From a plasmid, in sequence record NZ_CP110904.1: a DNA stretch of 64,000 nt; one strand, 5' to 3'. Position 1 is the first letter of the stretch; each line of letters opens with the position of its first letter. A program made the position numbers and the translations under genes. Positions 43,724 to 64,000 of this stretch are shown here, one piece after another. The notes below the pieces were generated by a model. It was not told the DNA's origin. It saw only the letters and a program-made list of their open reading frames with translations, and made no database searches.

Positions 43724-44341
43724 TCAGTCTTCCCGCAGGTACTGGTACAAGGTTTCGCGGCTGATGCCGAAGTCACGGGCCACCAAGGTTTTTTGGTCGC
43801 CTGCCGCAACTCGCCGTTTCAACTCGGCAATTTGTTCGCTGTTCAGCGATTTCTTTCGTCCCCGGTAGGCACCGCGCTGCTTGGCCAGCACGATTCCCTC
43901 GCGCTGACGTTCGCGGATCAGGGCGCGCTCGAACTCAGCGAAGGCTCCCATGACCGACAGCATCAGATTGGCCATCGGTGAGTCCTCGCCGGTGAACTTC
44001 AGCCCTTCTTTGACGAACTCCATGCGCACGCCCCGTTGTGTCAGCCCTTGGACGATGCGGCGCAGGTCATCAAGGTTGCGTGCCAGCCTGTCCATGCTAT
44101 GCACCACCACGGTGTCGCCCTCGCGGACGAAGGCCAGCAGCCTTTCCAGCTCGGGACGCTGGGTGTCCTTGCCAGAAGCCTTGTCGGTGAACACCCGCGC
44201 CACCTGAACACCCTCCAATTGCCGTTCCGGGTTCTGGTCGAAGCTGCTGACGCGGACATAGCCGATGCGTTGACCTTGCAAGATGCCTCCAAAGGCAAAA
44301 GTGTCAGGATGAAATCTATTACCTTTGACGGAATATGTCAA
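43724..44341 (-). CDS. tnpR: Tn21-subgroup resolvase
   Basis: …[22 protein letters not shown].... Confidence 0.95.
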
Positions 44342-44586
44342 TCAATAGGAAATTTAACTCTATTCTGACATCGTTTGCACATGGTGTCGTTTTCAGAAGA
44401 CGGCTGCACTGAACGTCAGAAGCCGACTGCACTATAGCAGCGGAGGGGTTGGATCCATCAGGCAACGACGGGCTGCTGCCGGCCATCAGCGGACGCAGGG
44501 AGGACTTTCCGCAACCGGCCGTTCGATGCGGCACCGATGGCCTTCGCGCAGGGGTAGTGAATCCGCCAGGATTGACTTGCGCTGCC

Positions 44587-45519
44587 CTACCTCTCACTAG
44601 TGAGGGGCGGCAGCGCATCAAGCGGTGAGCGCACTCCGGCACCGCCAACTTTCAGCACATGCGTGTAAATCATCGTCGTAGAGACGTCGGAATGGCCGAG
44701 CAGATCCTGCACGGTTCGAATGTCGTAACCGCTGCGGAGCAAGGCCGTCGCGAACGAGTGGCGGAGGGTGTGCGGTGTGGCGGGCTTCGTGATGCCTGCT
44801 TGTTCTACGGCACGTTTGAAGGCGCGCTGAAAGGTCTGGTCATACATGTGATGGCGACGCACGACACCGCTCCGTGGATCGGTCGAATGCGTGTGCTGCG
44901 CAAAAACCCAGAACCACGGCCAGGAATGCCCGGCGCGCGGATACTTCCGCTCAAGGGCGTCGGGAAGCGCAACGCCGCTGCGGCCCTCGGCCTGGTCCTT
45001 CAGCCACCATGCCCGTGCACGCGACAGCTGCTCGCGCAGGCTGGGTGCCAAGCTCTCGGGTAACATCAAGGCCCGATCCTTGGAGCCCTTGCCCTCCCGC
45101 ACGATGATCGTGCCGTGATCGAAATCCAGATCCTTGACCCGCAGTTGCAAACCCTCACTGATCCGCATGCCCGTTCCATACAGAAGCTGGGCGAACAAAC
45201 GATGCTCGCCTTCCAGAAAACCGAGGATGCGAACCACTTCATCCGGGGTCAGCACCACCGGCAAGCGCCGCGACGGCCGAGGTCTTCCGATCTCCTGAAG
45301 CCAGGGCAGATCCGTGCACAGCACCTTGCCGTAGAAGAACAGCAAGGCCGCCAATGCCTGACGATGCGTGGAGACCGAAACCTTGCGCTCGTTCGCCAGC
45401 CAGGACAGAAATGCCTCGACTTCGCTGCTGCCCAAGGTTGCCGGGTGACGCACACCGTGGAAACGGATGAAGGCACGAACCCAGTGGACATAAGCCTGTT
45501 CGGTTGGTAAGCTGTAAAG
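44587..45519 (-). pseudogene. intI1: intI1, 5'-truncated (lacks about the first 36 codons, Pint and attI1)
   Basis: Matches IntI1 from …[13 protein letters not shown] onward. An in-frame stop immediately follows at the junction with the qacE-leader-like sequence. Confidence 0.85.
45485..45513 (+). promoter_or_regulatory. Pc cassette promoter, PcW with TGN extended -10 (TGGACA-17-TGG-TAAGCT)
   Basis: -35 TGGACA at 45485-45490 and -10 TAAGCT at 45508-45513, preceded by TGG; the canonical GGTTCG is GGTTGG here. Confidence 0.7.
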
Positions 45520-45620
45520 TTAGATGCACTAAGCACATAATTGCTCACAGCCAAACTATCAGGTCAAGTCTGCTTTTATTATTTTTAAGCGTGCATAATA
45601 AGCCCTACACAAATTGGGAG
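45519..45620. repeat. 102-bp qacE-cassette leader sequence, copy 1 (direct repeat of 48611-48712)
   Basis: GTTAGATGCACTAAGCACATAATTGCTCACAGCC...CAAATTGGGAG is identical to the segment preceding qacEdelta1. Confidence 0.85.
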
Positions 45621-45629
45621 TTAGACATC

Positions 45630-46229
45630 ATGAGCAACGCAAAAACAAAGTTAGGCATCACAAAGTACAGCATCGTGACCAACAGCAACGATTCCGTCAC
45701 ACTGCGCCTCATGACTGAGCATGACCTTGCGATGCTCTATGAGTGGCTAAATCGATCTCATATCGTCGAGTGGTGGGGCGGAGAAGAAGCACGCCCGACA
45801 CTTGCTGACGTACAGGAACAGTACTTGCCAAGCGTTTTAGCGCAAGAGTCCGTCACTCCATACATTGCAATGCTGAATGGAGAGCCGATTGGGTATGCCC
45901 AGTCGTACGTTGCTCTTGGAAGCGGGGACGGAAGGTGGGAAGAAGAAACCGATCCAGGAGTACGCGGAATAGACCAGTTACTGGCGAATGCATCACAACT
46001 GGGCAAAGGCTTGGGAACCAAGCTGGTTCGAGCTCTGGTTGAGTTGCTGTTCAATGATCCCGAGGTCACCAAGATCCAAACGGACCCGTCGCCGAGCAAC
46101 TTGCGAGCGATCCGATGCTACGAGAAAGCGGGGTTTGAGAGGCAAGGTACCGTAACCACCCCATATGGTCCAGCCGTGTACATGGTTCAAACACGCCAGG
46201 CATTCGAGCGAACACGCAGTGATGCCTAA
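45630..46229 (+). CDS. aac(6')-Ib-cr: aminoglycoside/fluoroquinolone acetyltransferase AAC(6')-Ib-cr
   Basis: 199 aa, [16 protein letters not shown].... Both -cr residues are present: GDGRWEEE (Arg in place of Trp) and TTPYGPAVY (Tyr in place of Asp). Confidence 0.9.
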
Positions 46230-46362
46230 CCCTTCCATCGAGGGGGACGTCCAAGGGCTGGCGCCCTTGGCCGCCCCTCATGTCAAACGTTGGGCGAACC
46301 CGGAGCCTCATTAATTGTTAGCCGTTAAAATTAAGCCCTTTACCAAACCAATACTTATTATG

Positions 46363-47190
46363 AAAAACACAATACATATCAACTTCGCTATTTTTTTAAT
46401 AATTGCAAATATTATCTACAGCAGCGCCAGTGCATCAACAGATATCTCTACTGTTGCATCTCCATTATTTGAAGGAACTGAAGGTTGTTTTTTACTTTAC
46501 GATGCATCCACAAACGCTGAAATTGCTCAATTCAATAAAGCAAAGTGTGCAACGCAAATGGCACCAGATTCAACTTTCAAGATCGCATTATCACTTATGG
46601 CATTTGATGCGGAAATAATAGATCAGAAAACCATATTCAAATGGGATAAAACCCCCAAAGGAATGGAGATCTGGAACAGCAATCATACACCAAAGACGTG
46701 GATGCAATTTTCTGTTGTTTGGGTTTCGCAAGAAATAACCCAAAAAATTGGATTAAATAAAATCAAGAATTATCTCAAAGATTTTGATTATGGAAATCAA
46801 GACTTCTCTGGAGATAAAGAAAGAAACAACGGATTAACAGAAGCATGGCTCGAAAGTAGCTTAAAAATTTCACCAGAAGAACAAATTCAATTCCTGCGTA
46901 AAATTATTAATCACAATCTCCCAGTTAAAAACTCAGCCATAGAAAACACCATAGAGAACATGTATCTACAAGATCTGGATAATAGTACAAAACTGTATGG
47001 GAAAACTGGTGCAGGATTCACAGCAAATAGAACCTTACAAAACGGATGGTTTGAAGGGTTTATTATAAGCAAATCAGGACATAAATATGTTTTTGTGTCC
47101 GCACTTACAGGAAACTTGGGGTCGAATTTAACATCAAGCATAAAAGCCAAGAAAAATGCGATCACCATTCTAAACACACTAAATTTATAA
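46363..47190 (+). CDS. blaOXA-1: OXA-1 class D beta-lactamase
   Basis: MKNTIHINFAIFLIIANIIYSSASAST...STFKIALSLMAFD...KTG. Confidence 0.95.
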   Translation, partial: KNTIHINFAIFLIIANIIYSSASASTDISTVASPLFEGTEGCFLLYDASTNAEIAQFNKAKCATQMAPDSTFKIALSLMAFDAEIIDQKTIFKWDKTPKGMEIWNSNHTPKTWMQFSVVWVSQEITQKIGLNKIKNYLKDFDYGNQDFSGDKERNNGLTEAWLESSLKISPEEQIQFLRKIINHNLPVKNSAIENTIENMYLQDLDNSTKLYGKTGAGFTANRTLQNGWFEGFIISKSGHKYVFVSALTGNLGSNLTSSIKAKKNAITILNTLNL

Positions 47191-47327
47191 AAAATCTAAT
47201 GGCAAAATCGCCCAACCCTTCAATCAAGTCGGGACGGCCAAAAGCAAGCTTTTGGCTCCCCTCGCTGGCGCTCGGCGCCCCTTATTTCAAACGTTAGACG
47301 GCAAAGTCACAGACCGCGGGATCTCTT

Positions 47328-47960
47328 ATGACCAACTACTTTGATAGCCCCTTCAAAGGCAAGCTGCTTTCTGAGCAAGTGAAGAACCCCAATATCAAAG
47401 TTGGGCGGTACAGCTATTACTCTGGCTACTATCATGGGCACTCATTCGATGACTGCGCACGGTATCTGTTTCCGGACCGTGATGACGTTGATAAGTTGAT
47501 CATCGGTAGTTTCTGCTCTATCGGGAGTGGGGCTTCCTTTATCATGGCTGGCAATCAGGGGCATCGGTACGACTGGGCATCATCTTTCCCGTTCTTTTAT
47601 ATGCAGGAAGAACCTGCATTCTCAAGCGCACTCGATGCCTTCCAAAAAGCAGGTAATACTGTCATTGGCAATGACGTTTGGATCGGCTCTGAGGCAATGG
47701 TCATGCCCGGAATCAAGATCGGGCACGGTGCGGTGATAGGCAGCCGCTCGTTGGTGACAAAAGATGTGGAGCCTTACGCTATCGTTGGCGGCAATCCCGC
47801 TAAGAAGATTAAGAAACGCTTCACCGATGAGGAAATTTCATTGCTTCTGGAGATGGAGTGGTGGAATTGGTCACTGGAGAAGATCAAAGCGGCAATGCCC
47901 ATGCTGTGCTCGTCTAATATTGTTGGCCTGCACAAGTATTGGCTCGAGTTTGCCGTCTAA
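47328..47960 (+). CDS. catB3: chloramphenicol acetyltransferase CatB3 (full length, 210 aa)
   Basis: [38 protein letters not shown].... Confidence 0.95.
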
Positions 47961-48044
47961 CAATTCAATCAAGCCGATGCCGCTTCGCGGCACGGCTTAT
48001 TTCAGGCGTTATGCAGCCAAATCCCAACAATTAAGGGTCTTAAA

Positions 48045-48497
48045 ATGGTAAAAGATTGGATTCCCATCTCTCATGATAATTACAAGCAGGTGCAAGGACC
48101 GTTCTATCATGGAACCAAAGCCAATTTGGCGATTGGTGACTTGCTAACCACAGGGTTCATCTCTCATTTCGAGGACGGTCGTATTCTTAAGCACATCTAC
48201 TTTTCAGCCTTGATGGAGCCAGCAGTTTGGGGAGCTGAACTTGCTATGTCACTGTCTGGCCTCGAGGGTCGCGGCTACATATACATAGTTGAGCCAACAG
48301 GACCGTTCGAAGACGATCCGAATCTTACGAACAAAAGATTTCCCGGTAATCCAACACAGTCCTATAGAACCTGCGAACCCTTGAGAATTGTTGGCGTTGT
48401 TGAAGACTGGGAGGGGCATCCTGTTGAATTAATAAGGGGAATGTTGGATTCGTTGGAGGACTTAAAGCGCCGTGGTTTACACGTCATTGAAGACTAG
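48045..48497 (+). CDS. arr-3: rifampin ADP-ribosyltransferase Arr-3
   Basis: 150 aa, MVKDWIPISHDNYKQVQGPFYHGTKANL.... Confidence 0.9.
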   Translation: MVKDWIPISHDNYKQVQGPFYHGTKANLAIGDLLTTGFISHFEDGRILKHIYFSALMEPAVWGAELAMSLSGLEGRGYIYIVEPTGPFEDDPNLTNKRFPGNPTQSYRTCEPLRIVGVVEDWEGHPVELIRGMLDSLEDLKRRGLHVIED

Positions 48498-48610
48498 TCC
48501 TTTGCATAACAAAGCCATCAAACCGGACGCCAGAGATTCCGCGCCTGTTGCGCATGGCTTCGCCATTTTATGCGCAATAGGCGCGCCACCCTGTCGCCGT
48601 TTATGGCGGC

Positions 48611-48712
48611 GTTAGATGCACTAAGCACATAATTGCTCACAGCCAAACTATCAGGTCAAGTCTGCTTTTATTATTTTTAAGCGTGCATAATAAGCCCTAC
48701 ACAAATTGGGAG
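48611..48712. repeat. 102-bp qacE leader, copy 2 (native position upstream of qacEdelta1)
   Basis: See 45519-45620. Confidence 0.85.
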
Positions 48713-48719
48713 ATATATC

Positions 48720-49067
48720 ATGAAAGGCTGGCTTTTTCTTGTTATCGCAATAGTTGGCGAAGTAATCGCAACATCCGCATTAAAATCTAGCGAGGGCTTT
48801 ACTAAGCTTGCCCCTTCCGCCGTTGTCATAATCGGTTATGGCATCGCATTTTATTTTCTTTCTCTGGTTCTGAAATCCATCCCTGTCGGTGTTGCTTATG
48901 CAGTCTGGTCGGGACTCGGCGTCGTCATAATTACAGCCATTGCCTGGTTGCTTCATGGGCAAAAGCTTGATGCGTGGGGCTTTGTAGGTATGGGGCTCAT
49001 AATTGCTGCCTTTTTGCTCGCCCGATCCCCATCGTGGAAGTCGCTGCGGAGGCCGACGCCATGGTGA
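48720..49067 (+). CDS. qacEdelta1: quaternary ammonium compound efflux SMR protein QacEdelta1
   Basis: 115 aa, [27 protein letters not shown].... Confidence 0.95.
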
Positions 49068-49900
49068 CGGTGTTCGGCATTCTGAATCTCACCGAGGACT
49101 CCTTCTTCGATGAGAGCCGGCGGCTAGACCCCGCCGGCGCTGTCACCGCGGCGATCGAAATGCTGCGAGTCGGATCAGACGTCGTGGATGTCGGACCGGC
49201 CGCCAGCCATCCGGACGCGAGGCCTGTATCGCCGGCCGATGAGATCAGACGTATTGCGCCGCTCTTAGACGCCCTGTCCGATCAGATGCACCGTGTTTCA
49301 ATCGACAGCTTCCAACCGGAAACCCAGCGCTATGCGCTCAAGCGCGGCGTGGGCTACCTGAACGATATCCAAGGATTTCCTGACCCTGCGCTCTATCCCG
49401 ATATTGCTGAGGCGGACTGCAGGCTGGTGGTTATGCACTCAGCGCAGCGGGATGGCATCGCCACCCGCACCGGTCACCTTCGACCCGAAGACGCGCTCGA
49501 CGAGATTGTGCGGTTCTTCGAGGCGCGGGTTTCCGCCTTGCGACGGAGCGGGGTCGCTGCCGACCGGCTCATCCTCGATCCGGGGATGGGATTTTTCTTG
49601 AGCCCCGCACCGGAAACATCGCTGTACGTGCTGTCGAACCTTCAAAAGCTGAAGTCGGCGTTGGGGCTTCCGCTATTGGTCTCGGTGTCGCGGAAATCCT
49701 TCTTGGGCGCCACCGTTGGCCTTCCTGTAAAGGATCTGGGTCCAGCGAGCCTTGCGGCGGAACTTCACGCGATCGGCAATGGCGCTGACTACGTCCGCAC
49801 CCACGCGCCTGGAGATCTGCGAAGCGCAATCACCTTCTCGGAAACCCTCGCGAAATTTCGCAGTCGCGACGCCAGAGACCGAGGGTTAGATCATGCCTAG
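49061..49900 (+). CDS. sul1: sulfonamide-resistant dihydropteroate synthase Sul1
   Basis: [23 protein letters not shown]...; its start overlaps the qacEdelta1 end. Confidence 0.95.
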
Positions 49901-50027
49901 CATTCACCTTCCGGCCGCCCGCTAGCGGACCCTGGTCAGGTTCCGCGAAGGTGGGCGCAGACATGCTGGGCTCGTCAGGATCAAACTGCACTATGAGGCG
50001 GCGGTTCATACCGCGCCAGGGGAGCGA

Positions 50028-50528
50028 ATGGACAGCGAGGAGCCTCCGAACGTTCGGGTCGCCTGCTCGGGTGATATCGACGAGGTTGTGCGGCTGATGC
50101 ACGACGCTGCGGCGTGGATGTCCGCCAAGGGAACGCCCGCCTGGGACGTCGCGCGGATCGACCGGACATTCGCGGAGACCTTCGTCCTGAGATCCGAGCT
50201 CCTAGTCGCGAGTTGCAGCGACGGCATCGTCGGCTGTTGCACCTTGTCGGCCGAGGATCCCGAGTTCTGGCCCGACGCCCTCAAGGGGGAGGCCGCATAT
50301 CTGCACAAGCTCGCGGTGCGACGGACACATGCGGGCCGGGGTGTCAGCTCCGCGCTGATCGAGGCTTGCCGCCATGCCGCGCGAACGCAGGGGTGCGCCA
50401 AGCTGCGGCTCGACTGCCACCCGAACCTGCGTGGCCTATACGAGCGGCTCGGATTCACCCACGTCGACACTTTCAATCCCGGCTGGGATCCAACCTTCAT
50501 CGCAGAACGCCTAGAACTCGAAATCTAA
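50028..50528 (+). CDS. 3'-CS orf5 GNAT-family acetyltransferase
   Basis: 166 aa, MDSEEPPNVRVACSGDIDEVVRLMHDAAAW.... Confidence 0.85.
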   Translation: MDSEEPPNVRVACSGDIDEVVRLMHDAAAWMSAKGTPAWDVARIDRTFAETFVLRSELLVASCSDGIVGCCTLSAEDPEFWPDALKGEAAYLHKLAVRRTHAGRGVSSALIEACRHAARTQGCAKLRLDCHPNLRGLYERLGFTHVDTFNPGWDPTFIAERLELEI

Positions 50529-50848
50529 CGTCCGTTCGGGCATCGAGGTCCATGTCGGGGTGGGACGGGCCCGTGGCTTCAAGATCACTTGCAGTCCGAC
50601 CGCGATGTCTTGGTTGCGCGAGAGGTTGTCGATATCCTCCACTTCCATCATCAACCCTGGATAATGCCGCCGCCGTCATCGCCGCCGACGCCCGTGCCGG
50701 GCTTTTCGGGCCTGTCAGGCTTGCTCGGCCTTCAGCCTGCCTGGGCGAGATCTCCGGCGGACGGATTAACGGCGGAGCTTCGCCGCCTTTCGTGCGTGTG
50801 AAGGCCGAAGATAGTTCTCTCAAAAACATCCGTTTATGAGAGATACCA

Positions 50849-50873
50849 AATGTCATTTTCAGAAGACGACTGC
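50849..50873. repeat. integron IRt copy (TGTCATTTTCAGAAGACGACTGCAC) before IS6100
   Basis: Part of a 123-bp segment (50849-50971) that recurs inverted at 51882-52005. Confidence 0.8.
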
Positions 50874-50973
50874 ACCAGTTGATTGGGCGTAATGGCTGTT
50901 GTGCAGCCAGCTCCTGACAGTTCAATATCAGAAGTGATCTGCACCAATCTCGACTATGCTCAATACTCGTGTG

Positions 50974-51853
50974 GGCTCTGTTGCAAAAATCGTGAAGCTT
51001 GAGCATGCTTGGCGGAGATTGGACGGACGGAACGATGACGGATTTCAAGTGGCGCCATTTCCAGGGTGATGTGATCCTGTGGGCGGTGCGCTGGTATTGT
51101 CGCTATCCGATCAGCTATCGCGACCTTGAGGAAATGCTGGCGGAACGCGGCATTTCGGTCGACCATACGACGATCTATCGCTGGGTCCAGTGCTACGCCC
51201 CGGAGATGGAGAAGCGGCTGCGCTGGTTCTGGCGGCGTGGCTTTGATCCGAGCTGGCGCCTGGATGAAACCTACGTCAAGGTGCGGGGCAAGTGGACCTA
51301 CCTGTACCGGGCAGTCGACAAGCGGGGCGACACGATCGATTTCTACCTGTCGCCGACCCGCAGCGCCAAGGCAGCGAAGCGGTTCCTGGGCAAGGCCCTG
51401 CGAGGCCTGAAGCACTGGGAAAAGCCTGCCACGCTCAATACCGACAAAGCGCCGAGCTATGGTGCAGCGATCACCGAATTGAAGCGCGAAGGAAAGCTGG
51501 ACCGGGAGACGGCCCACCGGCAGGTGAAGTATCTCAATAACGTGATCGAGGCCGATCACGGAAAGCTCAAGATACTGATCAAGCCGGTGCGCGGTTTCAA
51601 ATCGATCCCCACGGCCTATGCCACGATCAAGGGATTCGAAGTCATGCGAGCCCTGCGCAAAGGACAGGCTCGCCCCTGGTGCCTGCAGCCCGGCATCAGG
51701 GGCGAGGTGCGCCTTGTGGAGAGAGCTTTTGGCATTGGGCCCTCGGCGCTGACGGAGGCCATGGGCATGCTCAACCACCATTTCGCAGCAGCCGCCTGAT
51801 CGGCGCAGAGCGACAGCCTACCTCTGACTGCCGCCAATCTTTGCAACAGAGCC
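50974..51853 (+). mobile_element. IS6100 (IS6 family, 880 bp)
   Basis: 14-bp IRs GGCTCTGTTGCAAA and TTTGCAACAGAGCC; transposase MTDFKWRHFQGDVILWAVRWY.... Confidence 0.95.
51035..51799 (+). CDS. tnpA: IS6100 transposase
   Basis: 254 aa starting at MTDFKW. Confidence 0.9.
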   Translation: MTDFKWRHFQGDVILWAVRWYCRYPISYRDLEEMLAERGISVDHTTIYRWVQCYAPEMEKRLRWFWRRGFDPSWRLDETYVKVRGKWTYLYRAVDKRGDTIDFYLSPTRSAKAAKRFLGKALRGLKHWEKPATLNTDKAPSYGAAITELKREGKLDRETAHRQVKYLNNVIEADHGKLKILIKPVRGFKSIPTAYATIKGFEVMRALRKGQARPWCLQPGIRGEVRLVERAFGIGPSALTEAMGMLNHHFAAAA

Positions 51854-51980
51854 TCCGTCGCCATGCTCACCTCGCTTTGGTGCACACGAGTATTGAGCAT
51901 AGTCGAGATTGGTGCAGATCACTTCTGATATTGAACTGTCAGGAGCTGGCTGCACAACAGCCATTACGCCCAATCAACTG

Positions 51981-52005
51981 GTGCAGTCGTCTTCTGAAAA
52001 TGACA
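51981..52005. repeat. integron IRt (outer end)
   Basis: GTGCAGTCGTCTTCTGAAAATGACA followed by the CATGG target duplication. Confidence 0.85.
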
Positions 52006-52036
52006 CATGGCATCTGACATCAAGTTAGGGTATGCC

Positions 52037-52249
52037 TCAATCTGACGGCTGCGAACCGCCAGGGACAGGCGCAATGTCAGATTCTGTCGCGGCCTTGGCG
52101 CGTGCCTGGAAGCGTTCATAGCAATCCAGCCCGCAGAAATGTTCGACGTATTCCGCGCCTTCCGGGGTGAAGGCGGCATCGAGCGGAATTTCTTTGCAGC
52201 ATACGCAGCAGGTGGTGCAACTGGCAGTGTTCGGGGCGTTTGCGTTCAT
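52037..52249 (-). CDS. mer-associated urf2 (conserved ORF downstream of merE; Cys-rich)
   Basis: 70 aa, [24 protein letters not shown]..., in the position of urf2 in Tn21/Tn1696-type mer operons. Confidence 0.55.
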
Positions 52250-52314
52250 GGTGGTACTCCTCCAGATTGGTAGCGAAGCTCAAAGCTGCCCACTCTCGGC
52301 TGGCTGGGAAGCGG

Positions 52315-52551
52315 TCATGATCTTCCCTTGAAGGCCCGCAGCAGCCGCGTCACAGACAGGACAAACAAGCCGGTCAGCGTGAGGGCTGCAATACCCCAGT
52401 GCTCCCCGATGAACGCGCCGGCCGTCGTGCCGGCTAGCACAATGGCGAGAATCGGCAAATGGCAGGGACAGGTGAGCACGGCCAGCGCGCCCCACAAGTA
52501 GCCGGTGATCGGTTTGTGCGTCTCAGACGGCAAGTGCTCTGGGCTGTTCAT
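52315..52551 (-). CDS. merE: MerE mercury transporter
   Basis: 78 aa, [35 protein letters not shown].... Confidence 0.9.
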
Positions 52552-52913
52552 GGCAGACTCTCCGCGTGCTGTGCCGGTTCGGTTGGCATGGCGGCCAGTT
52601 GCATTTCGAGGCTGGCCAGGGCCTCGCGCCGACGCTCGACGAGTTGCCGCAACACGGCAAGCTGCGCAGACGCACCGTCACCGTCCGCAGCATCCAGCGC
52701 CCGGCACAGCCGCGCCAGTGCGTCCAGGCCGATACCCGCTTCGAAGGCAGCCCGTACAAAGCGCAGCCGTTGCAACGCGGTGTCATCGAACAAGCCGTAG
52801 CCGCCCGTGGTGTACGCGACCGGCCGTAGCAATCCGCGCAGCAGGTAGTCGCGCACGATATGCACGCTCACCCCGGCATCAAGGGCCAGCCGGGACACTG
52901 TGTAGGCGCTCAT
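52548..52913 (-). CDS. merD: MerD co-regulator
   Basis: Starts [23 protein letters not shown]...; the ORF-track form carries an 11-aa spurious extension. Confidence 0.9.
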
Positions 52914-52930
52914 TGAACACCTCCTTTTCC

Positions 52931-55080
<2,150 letters not shown>

Positions 55081-55107
55081 GTGTCGCTCCCGAGTTCGGT
55101 TAACGGA

Positions 55108-55383
55108 TCAGCGTTTGAGGCTGGACGGATAGCCCGCGTCCTCGGTCGCCTTGGTCAACTTCTGGACGTTGGTCTTGGCATCGTCGAAGGTGACGACGGC
55201 CTGGCGCTTGTCGAAACTTACGTCGGTCTTGCTCACGCCCTCAACCTTGGAAAGCGCGTGCTTGACAGTGATCGGGCAAGAGGCGCAGGTCATGCCAGGC
55301 ACGGACAGCGTGACGGTCTGGGTGGCGGCCCACACGGGGGCAACAACGGCAGCGAGGGCGAGGGCGGCAAACAGTTTTTTCAT
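55108..55383 (-). CDS. merP: MerP periplasmic mercury-binding protein
   Basis: 91 aa with a signal peptide and GMTCASCP. Confidence 0.9.
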   Translation of the reverse strand: MKKLFAALALAAVVAPVWAATQTVTLSVPGMTCASCPITVKHALSKVEGVSKTDVSFDKRQAVVTFDDAKTNVQKLTKATEDAGYPSSLKR

Positions 55384-55398
55384 GATGAACTCCTGTGA

Positions 55399-55809
55399 TT
55401 AATAGAAAAATGGCATGACGTAGGGAAATCCGAGCGAGACCAGGACCAGCGCGGCCACGATCCAGAAAATGAGCTTGTAAGTAGCTCGCACTTGGGGAAT
55501 CGCGCAGACCTCACCCGGTTTGCAGGCTTGCGCCGGGCGGTAGATGCGCCGCCAGGCGAAAAACAGCGCGACCAGCGCTGCGCCGATGAAGATCGGGCGA
55601 TAGGGTTCCAGCACCGTCAGGTTGCCGATCCATGCCCCGCTGAACCCCAAGGCGATCAAAACCAGCGGCCCCAGGCAGCAGGCCGACGCAAGAATGGCGG
55701 CCAGCCCACCGGCGAAGAGCGCGCCGCGCCCGTTTTGTGGTTCAGACTTTTGTGGTTCAGACTTTTGTGGTTCAGACTTTTGTGGTTCAGACTTTTGTGG
55801 TTCAGACAT
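55399..55809 (-). CDS. merT: MerT mercury transporter with N-terminal 20-aa in-frame repeat expansion
   Basis: 136 aa against the canonical ~116: M-(SEPQK)x4-SEPQNGRGALFAGGLAAILASACCLGPLV.... Confidence 0.9.
   Translation of the reverse strand: MSEPQKSEPQKSEPQKSEPQKSEPQNGRGALFAGGLAAILASACCLGPLVLIALGFSGAWIGNLTVLEPYRPIFIGAALVALFFAWRRIYRPAQACKPGEVCAIPQVRATYKLIFWIVAALVLVSLGFPYVMPFFY
55732..55806. repeat. tandem repeat 15 bp x 5 (CTTTTGTGGTTCAGA on the plus strand) at the 5' end of merT
   Basis: Units at 55732-46 (first base G), 55747-61, 55762-76, 55777-91 and 55792-806, directly followed by the merT start codon (CAT at 55807-55809). Confidence 0.9.
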
Positions 55810-55880
55810 ACGCTTGTCCTTTCAAATTTGGTTTGGATAGCTTAAGCTTACTTCCGTAGTTATGTACGGAGTCAAGCGAT

Positions 55881-56336
55881 ATGCAAATTAATTTTGAGAA
55901 TCTGACCATTGGCGTTTTTGCCAAGGCGGCCGGGGTCAATGTGGAGACCATCCGGTTCTACCAGCGCAAGGGCCTGCTGCCGGAGCCAGACAAGCCCTAT
56001 GGCAGCATTCGCCGCTATGGCGAGGCGGATGTAACACGAGTGCGGTTCGTGAAATCGGCCCAGCGGCTGGGCTTTAGCCTGGACGAAATCGCCGAGCTAC
56101 TGCGGCTGGAGGATGGCACCCATTGCGAGGAAGCCAGCGGCCTGGCCGAGCACAAGCTCAAGGATGTGCGCGAGAAGATGGCCGACTTGGCACGCATGGA
56201 GGCCGTGCTGTCTGAACTGGTGTGCGCCTGCCATGCGCGGAAAGGGAACGTTTCCTGCCCGCTGATTGCGTCACTGCAAGACGGAACGAAGCTCGCTGCA
56301 TCGGCGCGGGGGAGTCACGGGGTGACTACGCCTTAG
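55881..56336 (+). CDS. merR: MerR Hg(II)-responsive regulator (C-terminus differs from the Tn21 form and terminates inside the IR)
   Basis: …[26 protein letters not shown]…[19 protein letters not shown], then [18 protein letters not shown]. The stop TAG is part of the IR at 56332. Confidence 0.85.
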
Positions 56337-56369
56337 CGTGCTTTATTTTCCGAATTCTGAGACGACCCC
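56332..56369. repeat. 38-bp mer-end IR (reverse complement GGGGTCGTCTCAGAATTCGGAAAATAAAGCACGCTAAG)
   Basis: Differs from the tnp-end IR at two positions (AA to TT), creating GAATTC. Confidence 0.85.
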
Positions 56370-56840
56370 TTGCTGAAAAGCTCGCGCCCATCAGGGTTGG
56401 CACAGGCGATCATGGAAGTGGGGCGCGTCAACAAGACGCTGTACCTTCTAAATTATATTGATGATGAAGATTATCGTCGGCGGATCCTGACGCAGCTAAA
56501 CCGGGGAGAAGGCCGCCATGCTGTGGCGAGGGCGATCTGCTACGGGCAGCGCGGTGAGATCAGAAAGCGCTATCGTGAAGGTCAGGAAGATCAACTGGGT
56601 GCACTGGGCCTCGTCACTAACGCAGTGGTACTGTGGAACACACTTTATATGCAGGAAGCCCTGAGCTGGATGCGCAGGAATGGAGAAGAAACCGGGGGTG
56701 AAGATATCGTCCGGTTATCCCCACTGATGCACGGGCATATCAATATGCTGGGGCATTATACGTTCACGCTACCGGAGGATATTTTGAAGGGGGAACTGAG
56801 AGAATTAAATTTTAATTTAAACAATGAATTACCTTCTTAG
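56370..56840 (+). pseudogene. tnpA: 3' fragment of a Tn3-family (Tn1000/gamma-delta-like) tnpA
   Basis: …LYLLNYIDDEDYRRRILTQLNRGEGRHAVARAI…LSPLMHGHINMLGHYTF… is homologous to Tn3-family TnpA C-termini. It begins directly after the mer-end IR. Confidence 0.6.
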
Positions 56841-56873
56841 CGTACGTTTTCGTTCCATTGGCCCTCAAACCCC
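56836..56873. repeat. 38-bp Tn3-family IR (reverse complement GGGGTTTGAGGGCCAATGGAACGAAAACGTACGCTAAG; Tn1000-like)
   Basis: Overlaps the stop of the tnpA fragment as in Tn3-family elements. Resembles the gamma-delta IR from memory; not verified. Confidence 0.6.
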
Positions 56874-56911
56874 TTTATGAAGTAAGAGATACAAAACGAG
56901 GCGGAAGAGAG

Positions 56912-57364
56912 TTAATGACTAGTATCAGGTTTGATCGCTGAAGCATATTTATAGTGGATATCCATAGCATGTCTAAATGCCGAAGACTCATTTACTAATC
57001 TTTTTTTATCAGAAGTTTCATTCTGTACAGATTTCACACGGCAATTCAGTTCGCCATTTTCATCAATAAACAGACTTTCCAAAAAATCAACAATAAACTG
57101 ATGTGAGTCTTCATTAAGGCTATTTACAACCTTACCAGTCTCATCAAATCGTGAGTCCCAAACAGGTTCTACATTGTAGGCATCTATAAATTCTTGAGAT
57201 GCTGTGACACACTGTCCGCCCTGATACTGCTGACTGGAGACATTAACAACGCGATTTACGTTGCCAAATGCTTTCTCTCTGGCCTGTACCTCAGTAGCGC
57301 CAACTCCGCATAGCTGGATAGTAATACTGTCATTTGTCGAATTAACATGGATAATCGCTTTCAA
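56912..57364 (-). CDS. hypothetical protein
   Basis: 150-aa AT-rich ORF downstream of the paralog fragment. Confidence 0.4.
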   Translation of the reverse strand: MKAIIHVNSTNDSITIQLCGVGATEVQAREKAFGNVNRVVNVSSQQYQGGQCVTASQEFIDAYNVEPVWDSRFDETGKVVNSLNEDSHQFIVDFLESLFIDENGELNCRVKSVQNETSDKKRLVNESSAFRHAMDIHYKYASAIKPDTSH

Positions 57365-57401
57365 TTCTAAAACCCTCTGTTTTATCTATTTCAGCCATAG
57401 A

Positions 57402-57665
57402 CTAAATGCGTTGACTACTAATGATATATTGCGCGAGTTTGATGTTGAGACATACCATGTTGCTTGAAAGTTCCGGCATCATGCGGGATTCACTACGAAT
57501 TAAATAGGGTTCCAGCCCCCCAGAATATGCCCCAGATGTTACAACGGTCAACTGGGCAATGGGATTATTTAGTTTACCTACTCCTGCCAGGATATCGTCC
57601 TCAACCGCAGCGATATAAACTGGGGAGGCAGCGATCACGTAATCATCAGTAGGCCTGGCTTCCAT
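57402..57665 (-). pseudogene. C-terminal fragment of a homolog of the 8187-8840 protein, truncated by a Tn1721-type IR
   Basis: 87 aa, …DYVIAASPVYIAAVEDDILAGVGKL…LTVVTSGAYSGGL…MMPELSSNMVCLNIKLAQ…. The upstream part is missing beyond the IR at 57668. Confidence 0.5.
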
Positions 57666-57667
57666 TA

Positions 57668-57705
57668 AGGGGAGCCCGCAGAATTCGGAAAAAATCGTAC
57701 GCTAA
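57668..57705. repeat. 38-bp Tn501/Tn1721-type IR GGGGAGCCCGCAGAATTCGGAAAAAATCGTACGCTAAG
   Basis: Exact match to the Tn1721-type IR as recalled. The tnpA stop lies within it. Confidence 0.8.
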
Positions 57706-58469
57706 GGTTTTCCGGGCATCCGTAAGGGCCGAAACTTCCCGTCTTCCAGTCTGCGGCTCTGCCGCCAGACGTAATCGCCGGTTAGGTTGATGTGCTCCCA
57801 GCCCAGCGGCGACAGGAATTGCAGCAGCTCGCCGTCCACCGGCTTGCCGGCCTCGACCAACCCCTGGGTGGCGCGTTCCAGGTACACCGTGTTCCACAGC
57901 ACGATAGCCGCCGTCACCAGGTTGAGGCCGCTGGCCCGGTAGCGCTGCTGCTCGAAGCTCCGATCCCTGATTTCCCCAAGGCGGTTGAAGAACACCGCCC
58001 TGGCCAGCGAGTTGCGCGCCTCACCTTTGTTCAGGCCGGCATGCACGCGGCGGCGCAGTTCAACACTTTGCAGCCAGTCCAGGATGAACAGCGTGCGCTC
58101 GATCCGGCCCAGCTCGCGCAGGGCCACGGCCAGTCCGTTCTGGCGCGGGTAGCTGCCGAGCTTGCGCAGCATCAGCGAGGCGGTGACGGTGCCCTGCTTG
58201 ATCGAGCTGGCCAGGCGCAGGATGTCGTCCCAGTGGGCACGCACGTGCTTGATGTTCAGGGTGCCGCCGATCAGCGGGCGCAACGTCGGGTAGGCTTGCA
58301 CGCCCTGCGGCACGTACAGCTTGGTTTCGCCGAGGTCGCGGATGCGCGGCGCGAAGCGGAAGCCTAGCAGGTGCATCAGGGCAAAGACGTGATCGGTGAA
58401 GCCGGCCGTGTCGGTGTAGTGCTCCTCGATCCGCAGGTCGGACTCGTGGTACAGCAGGCCGTCGAGCAC
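57702..58469 (-). pseudogene. tnpA: 3' fragment (255 codons) of a Tn1721/Tn501-like tnpA, cut by the Tn5393 IR
   Basis: Homologous to the C-terminus of the complete TnpA at 40749-43721 (…[27 protein letters not shown]…[10 protein letters not shown]). Confidence 0.8.
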
Positions 58470-58472
58470 ATA

Positions 58473-58553
58473 GGGGTCGTTTGCGGGAGAGGGCGAAATC
58501 CTACGCTAAGGCTTTGGCCAACGATATTCTCCGGTAAGATTGATGTGTTCCCA
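58473..58553. repeat. 81-bp Tn5393 terminal inverted repeat (strB-proximal end)
   Basis: GGGGTCGTTTGCGGGAGAGGGCGAAATCCTACGCTAAGGCTTTGGCC…GGGGATAGGAG. Confidence 0.85.
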
Positions 58554-58578
58554 GGGGATAGGAGAAGTCGCTTGATAT

Positions 58579-59415
58579 CTAGTATGACGTCTGTCGCACC
58601 TGCTTGATCGCGGCCGCGATAGCTAGATCGCGTTGCTCCTCTTCTCCATCCGCGTTCCAAGCTGCGGAAAGGCACCCATAAGCGTACGCCTGGTCGAGCA
58701 GGCGACGCGGATCGACGTCCAGCGCACGAGAGAATGCGTCCGCCATCTGTGCAATGCGTCTAGGATCGAGACAAAGGTCGTCTCTGTCAGCCGGATCGTA
58801 GAACATATTGGCGGCGCCAAAGCCCACTTCACCGACCAGACCGACGGGATCTATCACCAGCCAGCCGCGACTGGAGAACATGATGTTTTCATGATGCAGA
58901 TCGCCATGTAGCCCACGCAGTTCCGAGGCATTGCTCATCATTTGATCGGCTATAATCGCCGCGTGGACGTAGTCAGTTTGACAACCTGCGTTTTGATCAT
59001 CGCGCGCCCGCTGAAACAAAGCTGCAAAGCGATCCCGGATCGGGAGAAGGGCAGAAGGCAGGGGTTCCTCAGATGCGGCATACAGCTTCGCCATTAGTTC
59101 CGCTGCAATTTCGGTCGCCTGGTAGTCGCCGTGCTCGGCAACGATGTGAGAGAGCATTCGCTCCCCGGCATATTCGAGCAACATCAGATTGTTCTCACGA
59201 CCGAGCAACCGGACTGCTCCCCTCCCATTGCGCCATACCAGATAGTCGGCCCCGCGCAGTTCATCAGCAATGTCTTCTATAGGTTTCAATCCCTTGACGA
59301 TTGCAGGAGTCCCGTCTGGCAATGAAACTTTCCAAACGAGGCTGGAAAAGGTGTCCGCAATGAGAACAGGTTGCGAAACGTGCCAATGAGCAGGAAAAAC
59401 AGGCGGCATGAACAT
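58579..59415 (-). CDS. strB: aminoglycoside 6-phosphotransferase StrB (APH(6)-Id)
   Basis: 278 aa from MFMPPVFPAHWHVSQPVLIADTFSSLVWKV.... Confidence 0.95.
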   Translation of the reverse strand: MFMPPVFPAHWHVSQPVLIADTFSSLVWKVSLPDGTPAIVKGLKPIEDIADELRGADYLVWRNGRGAVRLLGRENNLMLLEYAGERMLSHIVAEHGDYQATEIAAELMAKLYAASEEPLPSALLPIRDRFAALFQRARDDQNAGCQTDYVHAAIIADQMMSNASELRGLHGDLHHENIMFSSRGWLVIDPVGLVGEVGFGAANMFYDPADRDDLCLDPRRIAQMADAFSRALDVDPRRLLDQAYAYGCLSAAWNADGEEEQRDLAIAAAIKQVRQTSY

Positions 59416-60218
59416 CAACCCCAAGTCAGAGGGTCCAATCGCAGATAGAAGGCAAGGCGTTCGCGGTCGGGGGCTTCGATCCCCAATACATTGAATAGGA
59501 CAGCGAAGGCGCGCTCTGCTTCATCTGGCGCTGCCCAGTTCTCTTCGGCGTTAGCAATCATGAGTGCCAAATCGGCATAGCGATCTGCTGTTCCGAGCCG
59601 CCCAAGGTCGATCAGACCCGTGCATTGAAGAGTTTTAGGGTCCACCATGAAGTTCGGCATGCAGGGATCACCATGGCAAACAACCATATCGGTGCGCTCT
59701 TGGTCGAGCCGCACCGGTAGCTCTCGTTCGACACGAGCCAAAAGATCGAGCTGCGGCGTACTCTTGTCCTCGTCCGGTAAGAAGTCGGGATTGACGGCAT
59801 TGCGGGACACCACATCAACGGCGCGTCCGAACATTCGCGACAGCCTGCGCTCAAACGGACATTGATCAACCGATAGGCTGTGAACAGCGCCAAGTTGCTG
59901 CCCCATTGACGGCCACGCTTTGAGCAAATCCGCTCCAGACAGATCAGCCGCCGGTACTCCCGGAATTGCCGTTATCACCAAGCATGCACCCTCCTGTTCC
60001 TCCTGCCAGTTGATGACCTCGGGGCAAGCCACACCTCGACCTTTGAGCCAAATGAGGCGGTCACGCTCTCCAGCGAGCTCACCGCGGCGGGAAGCAGGTG
60101 CGATTTTCGCGAAGGCATGCCCGTCACCACGTCGAAAAACAAAATCACCAGATTCTCCGCCTCTGACAGGCAACCAGTCAGAATGCGATTCACCAAAAAA
60201 AATATTAGTTCGATTCAA
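59415..60218 (-). CDS. strA: aminoglycoside 3''-phosphotransferase StrA (APH(3'')-Ib), TTG start
   Basis: (L/M)NRTNIFFGESHSDWLPVRGGESGDFVFRRGDGHAF...; the stop overlaps the strB start. Confidence 0.95.
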   Translation of the reverse strand: MNRTNIFFGESHSDWLPVRGGESGDFVFRRGDGHAFAKIAPASRRGELAGERDRLIWLKGRGVACPEVINWQEEQEGACLVITAIPGVPAADLSGADLLKAWPSMGQQLGAVHSLSVDQCPFERRLSRMFGRAVDVVSRNAVNPDFLPDEDKSTPQLDLLARVERELPVRLDQERTDMVVCHGDPCMPNFMVDPKTLQCTGLIDLGRLGTADRYADLALMIANAEENWAAPDEAERAFAVLFNVLGIEAPDRERLAFYLRLDPLTWG

Positions 60219-60488
60219 TGGAGGTTCCTTCAGTTTTCTGATGAAGCGCGGAGGTGGCTCAACCTGCGAAAAGAAACGAGTTGCTATGGACTTGCACCGG
60301 TTGTGTTCCGGTCTATCTCTCATTTTAAGCGGCTTTTTTCTCAAATGCCACCGGCGATTTCCAGCCGAGTGTTGAATGTCTTCGGCGTGGATTATAAAAG
60401 CCATTTACCCATATAATGCGCCTACTTATCAGCCTTTGGGACGTTGGGACGGTATTTTTCACTATATACCCCCAAGTTTTTAGACATG

Positions 60489-60521
60489 AAAAAAGCTCGA
60501 TATATTATAAATATATCGAGC
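60489..60521 (-). terminator. rho-independent terminator (11-bp stem GCTCGATATAT, 5-nt loop, T6 on the minus strand)
   Basis: Perfect palindrome GCTCGATATAT-TATAA-ATATATCGAGC with an A6 run on the plus-strand side, 110 bp downstream of the MBL-fold gene stop. Confidence 0.55.
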
Positions 60522-60631
60522 CTTTAAGTTACTGTTTTTCAATATCGTTCAAAATCTTGATAATTACAGTATACGGTTTTATGAAGTGGTATATTTGCAA
60601 ATGCTTATTTTGCAAGGTCTATTTGCTTGAT

Positions 60632-61279
60632 TTATCCTACAATCGTAATGCAAAACCCATGACCGGAAGCAACGAACTTAGGTTCAATCTCACTCAAATC
60701 CGAGGATAGCTTTTGTCCGGATTCTTGATTGGGCAATGTATCTGCGCCGCTTGATTTTACCGCTGCGTCCCAACTGCTTTCGATAACTTGTCCGTGATTC
60801 TCACCCATGCCGAACATGAGGTCGCTGCTAAAGAAAATACCACGTTTCTTTTCAAAAAATAAAAGTCCTTCCCACATATGCATTTCAGATGGGTAACTGA
60901 TAGTTTGAAATTCAAAATCATCTCCGGCAAATATTTCATTCGGCTTTTTAATAAGCACATTGTTAGTAATACCAAACCCCATCAGTTGTCTTGCTGTGGT
61001 TTCGGAACAAACCGCGACAGCTTCGGGATGTTCTTTGAGAACCAAAGCAAGTCCGCCACATTCGTCTGATTCAAAATGAGAAATTAGAATGTATTTTATT
61101 TTGCGTTCACCGAGCAACTCTTGCAACTTAGGAATGGTAGTTTGCGCTTGTGATACGGCTCCGGTCTGAATGAGAACAGGCTCATTTGTCATCAATAAGT
61201 ATTGGTGCATTGAAAGCTTAATCGGCTCCATTACCTCTGTAAATTGGTATAAATCTTTGATAATCTCTGTCATTGTCAA
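60632..61279 (-). CDS. metallo-beta-lactamase-fold protein (degenerate HxExDExGG motif)
   Basis: 215 aa, …KYILISHFESDECGGLALV…; AT-rich (~36% GC) and of different composition from both flanks. Confidence 0.55.
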   Translation of the reverse strand: MTMTEIIKDLYQFTEVMEPIKLSMHQYLLMTNEPVLIQTGAVSQAQTTIPKLQELLGERKIKYILISHFESDECGGLALVLKEHPEAVAVCSETTARQLMGFGITNNVLIKKPNEIFAGDDFEFQTISYPSEMHMWEGLLFFEKKRGIFFSSDLMFGMGENHGQVIESSWDAAVKSSGADTLPNQESGQKLSSDLSEIEPKFVASGHGFCITIVG

Positions 61280-61485
61280 AACGCCTTTTTCTATTTATAG
61301 TCTAACCTAAATTCCACGTGTGTTTTTTATTAGCTTCAAAAATCACTATTTCACGAAGAATTTAGACTGCTTCTCACACATTGTAACATTATTTACAACC
61401 ACCTTTCAATCATTTTTGATAAATCATTGATTTCATCTTTGCTGCAATGATACTTAATAAACTCTGCAAGGGTAATGACTCCAAC

Positions 61486-61989
61486 TTATTGATAGTGTTT
61501 TATGTTCAGATAATGCCCGATGACTTTGTCATGCAGCTCCACCGATTTTGAGAACGACAGCGACTTCCGTCCCAGCCGTGCCAGGTGCTGCCTCAGATTC
61601 AGGTTATGCCGCTCAATTCGCTGCGTATATCGCTTGCTGATTACGTGCAGCTTTCCCTTCAGGCGGGATTCATACAGCGGCCAGCCATCCGTCATCCATA
61701 TCACCACGTCAAAGGGTGACAGCAGGCTCATAAGACGCCCCAGCGTCGCCATAGTGCGTTCACCGAATACGTGCGCAACAACCGTCTTCCGGAGCCTGTC
61801 ATACGCGTAAAACAGCCAGCGCTGGCGCGATTTAGCCCCGACGTATCCCCACTGTTCGTCCATTTCCGCGCAGACGATGACGTCACTGCCCGGCTGTATG
61901 CGCGAGGTTACCGACTGCGGCCTGAGTTTTTTAAATGGCGGAAAATCGTGTTGAGGCCAACGCCCATAATGCGGGCGGTTGCCCGGCAT
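61486..61989 (-). CDS. insB: IS1 InsB
   Basis: Identical sequence. Confidence 0.9.
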
Positions 61990-62183
61990 CCAACGCCATT
62001 CATGGCCATATCAATGATTTTCTGGTGCGTACCGGGTTGAGAAGCGGTGTAAGTGAACTGCAGTTGCCATGTTTTACGGCAGTGAGAGCAGAGATAGCGC
62101 TGATGTCCGGCGGTGCTTTTGCCGTTACGCACCACCCCGTCAGTAGCTGAACAGGAGGGACAGCTGATAGAAACAGAAGCCAC
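61908..62183 (-). CDS. insA: IS1 InsA
   Basis: Identical sequence. Confidence 0.9.
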
Positions 62184-62461
62184 TGGAGCACCTCAAAAAC
62201 ACCATCATACACTAAATCAGTAAGTTGGCAGCATCACCCGACGCACTTTGCGCCGAATAAATACCTGTGACGGAAGATCACTTCGCAGAATAAATAAATC
62301 CTGGTGTCCCTGTTGATACCGGGAAGCCCTGGGCCAACTTTTGGCGAAAATGAGACGTTGATCGGCACGTAAGAGGTTCCAACTTTCACCATAATGAAAT
62401 AAGATCACTACCGGGCGTATTTTTTGAGTTATCGAGATTTTCAGGAGCTAAGGAAGCTAAA

Positions 62462-63121
62462 ATGGAGAAAAAAATCACTGGATATACCACCGTTGATATA
62501 TCCCAATGGCATCGTAAAGAACATTTTGAGGCATTTCAGTCAGTTGCTCAATGTACCTATAACCAGACCGTTCAGCTGGATATTACGGCCTTTTTAAAGA
62601 CCGTAAAGAAAAATAAGCACAAGTTTTATCCGGCCTTTATTCACATTCTTGCCCGCCTGATGAATGCTCATCCGGAATTCCGTATGGCAATGAAAGACGG
62701 TGAGCTGGTGATATGGGATAGTGTTCACCCTTGTTACACCGTTTTCCATGAGCAAACTGAAACGTTTTCATCGCTCTGGAGTGAATACCACGACGATTTC
62801 CGGCAGTTTCTACACATATATTCGCAAGATGTGGCGTGTTACGGTGAAAACCTGGCCTATTTCCCTAAAGGGTTTATTGAGAATATGTTTTTCGTCTCAG
62901 CCAATCCCTGGGTGAGTTTCACCAGTTTTGATTTAAACGTGGCCAATATGGACAACTTCTTCGCCCCCGTTTTCACCATGGGCAAATATTATACGCAAGG
63001 CGACAAGGTGCTGATGCCGCTGGCGATTCAGGTTCATCATGCCGTTTGTGATGGCTTCCATGTCGGCAGAATGCTTAATGAATTACAACAGTACTGCGAT
63101 GAGTGGCAGGGCGGGGCGTAA
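62462..63121 (+). CDS. catA1: type A-1 chloramphenicol acetyltransferase (Tn9 cat)
   Basis: 219 aa, [46 protein letters not shown]..., with the classical Tn9/pACYC184 upstream region. Confidence 0.95.
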
Positions 63122-63501
63122 TTTTTTTAAGGCAGTTATTGGTGCCCTTAAACGCCTGGTTGCTACGCCTGAATAAGTGATAATAAGCGGATGAATGGCA
63201 GAAATTCGAAAGCAAATTCGACCCGGTCGTCGGTTCAGGGCAGGGTCGTTAAATAGCCGCTTATGTCTATTGCTGGTTTACCGGTTTATTGACTACCGGA
63301 AGCAGTGTGACCGTGTGCTTCTCAAATGCCTGAGGCCAGTTTGCTCAGGCTCTCCCCGTGGAGGTAATAATTGACGATATGATCATTTATTCTGCCTCCC
63401 AGAGCCTGATAAAAACGGTTAGCGCCGGGGTTGGATTTTTCAGCGTTCCAGCTAAGGCTAAGGCATTCCTGTTCAAGCGCAAGCCGGGCTATAAAGCGCA
63501 T

Positions 63502-64000
63502 GGTAATGACTCCAACTTATTGATAGTGTTTTATGTTCAGATAATGCCCGATGACTTTGTCATGCAGCTCCACCGATTTTGAGAACGACAGCGACTTCCG
63601 TCCCAGCCGTGCCAGGTGCTGCCTCAGATTCAGGTTATGCCGCTCAATTCGCTGCGTATATCGCTTGCTGATTACGTGCAGCTTTCCCTTCAGGCGGGAT
63701 TCATACAGCGGCCAGCCATCCGTCATCCATATCACCACGTCAAAGGGTGACAGCAGGCTCATAAGACGCCCCAGCGTCGCCATAGTGCGTTCACCGAATA
63801 CGTGCGCAACAACCGTCTTCCGGAGCCTGTCATACGCGTAAAACAGCCAGCGCTGGCGCGATTTAGCCCCGACGTATCCCCACTGTTCGTCCATTTCCGC
63901 GCAGACGATGACGTCACTGCCCGGCTGTATGCGCGAGGTTACCGACTGCGGCCTGAGTTTTTTAAATGGCGGAAAATCGTGTTGAGGCCAACGCCCATAA
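63502..64000 (-). mobile_element. IS1, partial (runs off the window end)
   Basis: End GGTAATGACTCCAACTT at 63502. The insB fragment at 63517-63894 has the same orientation as the IS1 at 61471, giving a Tn9-like IS1-catA1-IS1 unit. Confidence 0.9.

Follow-up and report, generated by a model that had tools for sequence, protein, structure and literature searches.

A five-copy in-frame repeat at the start of merT is probably one allele of a near-neutral, hypervariable coding VNTR

MerT belongs to the mercury resistance (mer) operons, and its N-terminal tail faces the cytoplasm, where MerA takes over the Hg(II). The canonical MerT of Tn21/Tn501 has 116 aa and a single unit. The merT gene investigated here agrees with it in family assignment (NF010314/PF02411), in the N-terminal motif MSEPQNGRGALF, in the cysteine pairs and in the operon position, but contains five units instead of one. 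A MerT with three units is present in Swiss-Prot as MERT_ENTAG, a name which we take to point to the functional transposon Tn5036. The gene is located in a 64,000-nucleotide stretch of plasmid DNA (NZ_CP110904.1), which is referred to as the window. Matches to lineages in PLSDB that are 80-90% identical to the window comprise one unit and the promoter-side flank only, i.e., these lineages have a single copy. A description of the merT repeat was not found in a full-text literature search, the likeliest place for one being older subscription papers outside the scope of this search.

Structure of the array and its position in the mer module

The original prediction had described a five-copy 15-bp in-frame tandem repeat at the start of merT, located at 55732-55806. 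Tandem Repeats Finder (period 15, 5.0 copies, 100% matches, no indels) and the open reading frame confirmed this repeat; the interval 55732-55806 corresponds to the 25 repeated codons, but is one base off the perfect DNA repeat, which is found on the minus strand at 55733-55807. All five occurrences of the unit TTTTGTGGTTCAGAC in the window lie inside the array (0.14 occurrences were expected from shuffles, and 0 of 100 shuffles reached five). The array opens on position 3 of the merT start codon (the G of ATG), and its last unit is followed by C. Because the units begin at this G and are succeeded by C, the internal junction codons are AAG (Lys) and the last codon is AAC (Asn). The units are arranged head-to-tail, each is a multiple of three (five codons), and the merT ORF is intact. 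A SEPQK unit has no net charge. Neither a partial copy nor a microhomology flanking the array was seen in the window sequence. The array, the genes of the module and the regulatory elements are located as follows.

55733..55807, minus strand: array of the 15-bp unit, five perfect copies; sense unit GTCTGAACCACAAAA; encodes (SEPQK)x4-SEPQ(N)
55809..55399, minus strand: merT, 136 aa; an N-terminal repeat extension of 20 residues precedes the canonical 116-aa protein
55810..55880, minus strand: merR-merT intergenic operator/promoter, 71 bp
55875-55870, merT strand: -35 element TTGACT, read from the sequence
55870-55853, merT strand: MerR dyad TCCGTA-N6-TACGGA, read from the sequence
55850-55845, merT strand: -10 element TAAGCT, read from the sequence; -35/-10 spacer of 19 bp
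55821-55817, merT strand: Shine-Dalgarno sequence AAGGA, read from the sequence
55881..56336, plus strand: merR, divergent from merT (NF010315, 311 bits)
55108..55383, minus strand: merP (TIGR02052)
54655..55080, minus strand: merC (NF010318)
52931..54616, minus strand: merA (NF010311)
about 52548-52913, minus strand: merD ORF, named by gene order and size in matching annotated plasmids
52315-52551, minus strand: merE ORF, named in the same way
52037-52249, minus strand: urf2/DUF3330 ORF, named in the same way

The minus-strand ORF 55809..55399 is the sole plausible merT ORF at this position. Its product opens with MSEPQKSEPQKSEPQKSEPQKSEPQNGRGALF and has the layout M-[SEPQK]x4-SEPQN-GRGALF. 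It matches the MerT profile NCBIfam NF010314 with 226.1 bits (cut-off 150), residues 22-136 corresponding to profile positions 2-116 of 116. Since the profile alignment begins at residue 22, the canonical protein has no counterpart to the first 20 residues, and the predicted addition of 20 residues to the N-terminus (136 versus 116 aa) is thereby borne out. PF02411 is recorded on all MerT homologues. In an alignment of 36 MerT sequences C44, C45, C96 and C102 are invariant; they form the Cys-Cys pair 44-45 in TM1 and the second Cys pair 96/102, which in MerT belongs to the cytoplasmic loop. Conservation starts at G27-R28-G29 of the window protein, and earlier positions vary in length and sequence. 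Other MerT lineages keep degenerate two-unit N-termini, for example MSESKKSEPQN and MAESQNAEPQN. An AlphaFold model computed from this 36-sequence alignment contains helices at 27-61, 71-89 and 106-134 with residues 1-26 as coil, at a mean pLDDT of only 57 (low confidence); it tentatively suggests that the tail ahead of GRGALF and the first transmembrane helix is probably unstructured.

A start further downstream, which would leave the repeat in the 5' UTR, was considered and rejected: neither the repeat nor the codons just after it contain an in-frame ATG, GTG or TTG, and the Shine-Dalgarno sequence lies 7 nt upstream of the annotated ATG. Two odd MerT variants were encountered in metagenomes (188 aa and 137 aa). 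One of them joins two merT haplotypes via an internal duplication, the other carries a 21-residue insertion directly before the Cys-Cys pair; both may be assembly chimeras.

merT is the first structural gene of the module, located 3' of merOP, divergent from merR and followed by merP. The -35 and -10 elements and the MerR dyad were assigned according to the Tn21/Tn501 merOP, the layout of which we take as established. The array touches none of the -35, -10, MerR dyad and Shine-Dalgarno elements. The original prediction that it overlaps the mer operator/promoter-proximal leader is therefore refuted, as the array begins at base 3 of the ATG.

The plasmids used to name merD, merE and urf2 do not differ from the window in 3.4 kb or more of array flank, and the window module shows 0 SNPs over 3.4 kb in comparison to plasmid copies annotated as merRTPCADE plus DUF3330. 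By its gene order and its near-identity to reference copies, the merRTPCADE-urf2 module is assigned to the Tn1696/Tn5036 type. It sits within a resistance mosaic. Beyond urf2, a sul1-like ORF (48974-49900) and an IS26-like transposase ORF (50999-51799) are found; beyond merR there are two fragments of Tn3-family transposases (56370-56840 and 57702-58469) and strB/strA-like phosphotransferase ORFs (58579-59424 and 59415-60404), all of these being named from the ORF translations only. The module looks truncated, because an IS26-like transposase ORF lies past urf2 and Tn3-family transposase fragments lie past merR. For the region 44000-64000 the best coverage by any one PLSDB record is at most 66%.

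Copy-number alleles and their flanks

MerT sequences with 1 to 10 units were constructed and used for an exact-match lookup among about 15 billion public proteins. The following alleles were found.

1 unit, 116 aa: 876 contigs
2 units, 121 aa: at least 1000 contigs
3 units, 126 aa: at least 1000 contigs; exactly Swiss-Prot MERT_ENTAG
4 units, 131 aa: 989 contigs
5 units, 136 aa: 171 contigs; UniRef O06513_ECOLX; RefSeq 'MULTISPECIES ... [Gammaproteobacteria]'
6 units, 141 aa: 18 contigs
7 units, 146 aa: 7 contigs
8 units, 151 aa: 1 contig

MerT with 9 or 10 units (156 and 161 aa) gave 0 exact matches among these proteins. The five-copy MerT is not a new sequence, as it is already contained in UniRef, in RefSeq and in many plasmids.

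In PLSDB the copy classes were separated by '80% covered' counts, using queries with differing unit numbers.

At least 2 copies: 1195 plasmids
At least 3 copies: 246 plasmids
At least 4 copies: 189 plasmids
At least 5 copies: 39 plasmids (30 with 5, 2 with 6, 7 with 7)

These counts translate into about 949 two-copy, 57 three-copy and about 150 four-copy plasmids, two copies being the commonest state. An even sample of the PLSDB ranking agrees with the class counts. The same sample puts single-copy plasmids of this lineage at roughly 150-220; this figure is an estimate, since a query with one unit also hit further mer lineages (about 90% identity) and gave no clean count. The 30 plasmids with five copies come from Salmonella, Klebsiella, Enterobacter, Citrobacter, Raoultella and Leclercia. 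Among complete genomes of E. coli 10, 37, 1, 5 and 1 records have 1, 2, 3, 4 and 5 copies, respectively, and species-representative genomes sharing the leader are distributed as 48, 10, 5, 3 and 2 over the same classes, the two with five copies being Escherichia sp. ESNIH1 and Klebsiella grimontii. Metagenome contigs that carry more than one copy have between 2 and 6. Multi-copy alleles prevail on plasmids of Enterobacterales, whereas one copy prevails among environmental species. Surveyed among related plasmids, as the original prediction had proposed, the array shows 1 to 8 copies in public data.

Two strains carry this mer lineage twice, with different unit numbers. E. coli ECONIH4 has 4 units on the chromosome (NZ_CP026399.1) and 2 on a plasmid (NZ_CP026405.1), and CAVP776 (NZ_CM176338.1, NZ_JBSTNJ010000003.1) likewise has 4 on the chromosome versus 2 on the plasmid. 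In three PLSDB plasmids (NZ_OQ821126.1, NZ_OQ821160.1 and NZ_OQ821162.1) merT is cut 4 bases past the 5-unit array, the match ending at query base 40. No merT is annotated there, but the repeat and merR are kept; therefore, a deletion or insertion removed the gene body.

Flanks of 530 bp upstream and 2,900 bp downstream of the array were compared between every fetched locus and the window. A single 3,430-bp haplotype, with 0 SNPs relative to the window, occurs with 2, 4, 5, 6 and 7 copies, and haplotypes one SNP away from the window occur with 1, 3, 5 and 6. The IncP-6 plasmids pKAM645_7 (7 copies) and pJBIWA001_5 (6 copies) show 0 differences in 7,992 bp of flanks (6,000 + 1,992 bp). Two Citrobacter plasmids from one UK survey share a common merR-pagP junction, and a single SNP separates them in the 8 kb on the merR side; they have 5 and 4 copies, respectively. 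All units are identical across the alleles, and the junction is AAG in every multi-copy allele. The array had been predicted to be slippage-prone. This is strongly supported, with copy number running from 1 to 8 and varying on otherwise identical haplotypes. Array structure, copy-number polymorphism and a rate of change that is high relative to point mutation are read directly from these data, and the comparison indicates that the array mutates much faster than its flanks.

The array of pKAM622_6 (NZ_AP026398.1, locus 1545-1650) has 7 units, one of which contains 4 additional bases (ccacacacaaaa) while a later one lacks 4 bases (gaaccacaaaa). The total length is kept and the frame is shifted over ~26 bases between the two indels. 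This indel pair looks like a long-read consensus error.

With this locus, Tn1696-type mer modules and their carrier plasmids might be tracked at fine scale and low cost, since the array, which has at least 8 states, changes faster than several kb of mer DNA around it. The module that contains it is among the most widespread resistance modules on Enterobacterales plasmids. For annotators it is relevant that the length of MerT ranges from 116 to 151 aa owing to the number of units.

Origin of the array and possible functions

We consider it likely that the array is a hypervariable, in-frame coding VNTR of Tn1696/Tn5036-type merT which is close to neutral, the five copies of the window being one allele among others. 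A founding duplication of merT bases 3-17 would have generated two copies, and slipped-strand mispairing during replication or unequal recombination would then have added and removed whole units. The stepwise gain and loss of units seen between the alleles is consistent with slipped-strand mispairing or unequal exchange. As a unit comprises five codons, each allele would encode a full-length MerT, differing solely in the SEPQK count of the cytoplasmic N-tail. Such changes in length are most likely tolerated because the tail is non-conserved in length and sequence and probably unstructured, and they would have little or no effect on mercury resistance. Near-neutrality is most likely also in view of the alleles themselves: every unit number from 1 to 8 has been maintained on successful plasmids.

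The simplest origin is one founding duplication, because all multi-copy alleles share the AAG junction and no flanking direct repeat that would favor a first duplication is present in the single-copy sequence. The segment merR-OP-5'merT, 100% identical to the window, is also found fused to divergent 3' parts of merT, with breakpoints 87 nt and 120 nt after the array. The mosaic with the 87-nt breakpoint was found in Alishewanella, Rheinheimera and Aliidiomarina with 2-4 copies, the Acinetobacter mosaic with 1 copy only. In these loci, three from marine Gammaproteobacteria and two from Acinetobacter, the remainder of merT diverges by 10-24%, suggesting that recombination broke within the gene. 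The E. coli plasmid pH222-1 from chicken meat has 5 copies in a mosaic mer region that is unlike that of the window and appears similar to the first mosaic. The metagenome contig LNFM01003536.1 (locus 10307-10340) contains two exact units, while its leader and merR side are about 18% diverged. This implies either recombination over a very short patch or the same duplication having occurred twice, so that a single origin can hold only if recombination was patchy.

RNA folding was predicted for the assumed leader and the start of the merT coding region with 1 to 8 units. The transcription start was taken from the position of the -10 element, so that the resulting values are indicative only. To open the stretch from -14 to +13 relative to the AUG, a predicted 7.84 kcal/mol is required with one unit, as opposed to 5.83-6.45 kcal/mol with 2-8 units. 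Predicted accessibility of the ribosome site thus improves once, by ~2 kcal/mol when the second copy is added, and stays level up to eight copies. Because there is no step beyond this one, five copies are not predicted to differ from the common 2-copy allele. In addition, a small hairpin is predicted at 55811-55826 on the minus strand, in which the Shine-Dalgarno region (GGACA) pairs with UGUCU. The UGUCU arm covers the start codon and the first repeat codon, and the hairpin is part of the minimum-energy fold of all alleles from 1 to 8 units.

These predictions bear on the possibility that the array tunes expression. An A-rich, weakly structured repeat could space the ribosome binding site from the GC-rich body of merT, alter folding at the start codon and thereby tune translation of merT and of the coupled downstream genes. 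The lower opening energy with two or more units fits this idea, as does the fact that multi-copy alleles are the majority on clinical plasmids. The predicted effect, however, is confined to the step from one to two units without gradation up to eight, it depends on an assumed transcription start, and the Shine-Dalgarno hairpin GGACA/UGUCU is common to all alleles. Altogether, tuning of expression is rather unlikely. Similarly, we consider it improbable that SEPQK copy number acts as a heritable and rapidly reversible tuning knob on a mobile element. If it did, the knob would set the dosage or activity of MerT, and hence the balance of Hg(II) import and reduction, for each new host, and selection would explain why plasmids of Enterobacterales mostly have at least two units and environmental species mostly one. 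The multi-copy excess in Enterobacterales is also compatible with founder effects, although it could be due to selection instead. An effect of copy number on MerT output would make the array a rare evolvable tuning repeat on a transposon-borne metal-resistance operon; nothing in the present data argues for that. A function at the level of the protein, in which tail length (the number of SEPQK units) is subject to selection and affects MerT insertion, stability or the transfer of Hg(II) to MerA, would be in line with the established MerT topology, which places the tail on the cytoplasmic, MerA hand-off side, and with the degenerate two-unit N-termini kept in other lineages. This function is quite unlikely, though, given that conservation within the family is lowest in the tail, that the units are without net charge, that alleles with 1 to 8 units all persist, and that the 3-unit version is MERT_ENTAG, presumably from a functional transposon.

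Compensating +4/-4 indels resembling long-read errors, such as those in pKAM622_6, show that such arrays can be mis-called. An assembly or sequencing artefact in the window is nevertheless very unlikely, because the array has only 75 bp and the allele recurs on 171 contigs and in 30 PLSDB plasmids that were assembled independently; it is moreover perfect and in frame, and the identical 5-copy allele is present in two species-representative genomes and a metagenome contig. Hypermutability and the position at the 5' end of merT would suggest a classical ON/OFF contingency locus (phase variation), but the probability of such a locus is close to nil. With 15 bp, or five codons, per unit, frame and start codon are kept at every copy number observed, and the array is located outside the promoter spacer and the Shine-Dalgarno sequence. 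A frameshift-type phase switch is refuted by the sequence itself, since a five-codon unit neither shifts the frame nor creates a stop. The original prediction that the array could act as a contingency-type modulator of merTPCAD translation has consequently found no support: ON/OFF switching is impossible, and the predicted accessibility of the ribosome binding site is flat between 2 and 8 copies.

Comparison with known systems

The closest known systems are the Tn1696/Tn5036-type modules, including the Tn5036 MerT (MERT_ENTAG). The window protein is identical outside the repeat, its version with three units being MERT_ENTAG itself; the modules share the gene order merRTPCADE-urf2, and many plasmid copies have flanks that are 100% identical to those of the window. 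The difference is in the number of units only: five in the window, three in MERT_ENTAG and two in most plasmids, including pHCM1 of S. Typhi CT18.

In the simple-sequence contingency loci of Haemophilus and Neisseria, too, the 5' end of the gene carries a hypermutable repeat. Their units, however, have 1-7 bp and are not divisible by three, or the repeats lie in promoter spacers, which results in ON/OFF switching, whereas the merT unit has 15 bp. Gain or loss of units in such loci alters the reading frame or the distance between promoter elements; in the merT array it does neither. With bacterial in-frame coding VNTRs (spa, MLVA typing) the array shares perfect units that are a multiple of three and stepwise change on identical backgrounds. 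In contrast to those VNTRs, it is located at the extreme N-terminus of a small inner-membrane transporter encoded on a mobile element, and not in a surface protein.
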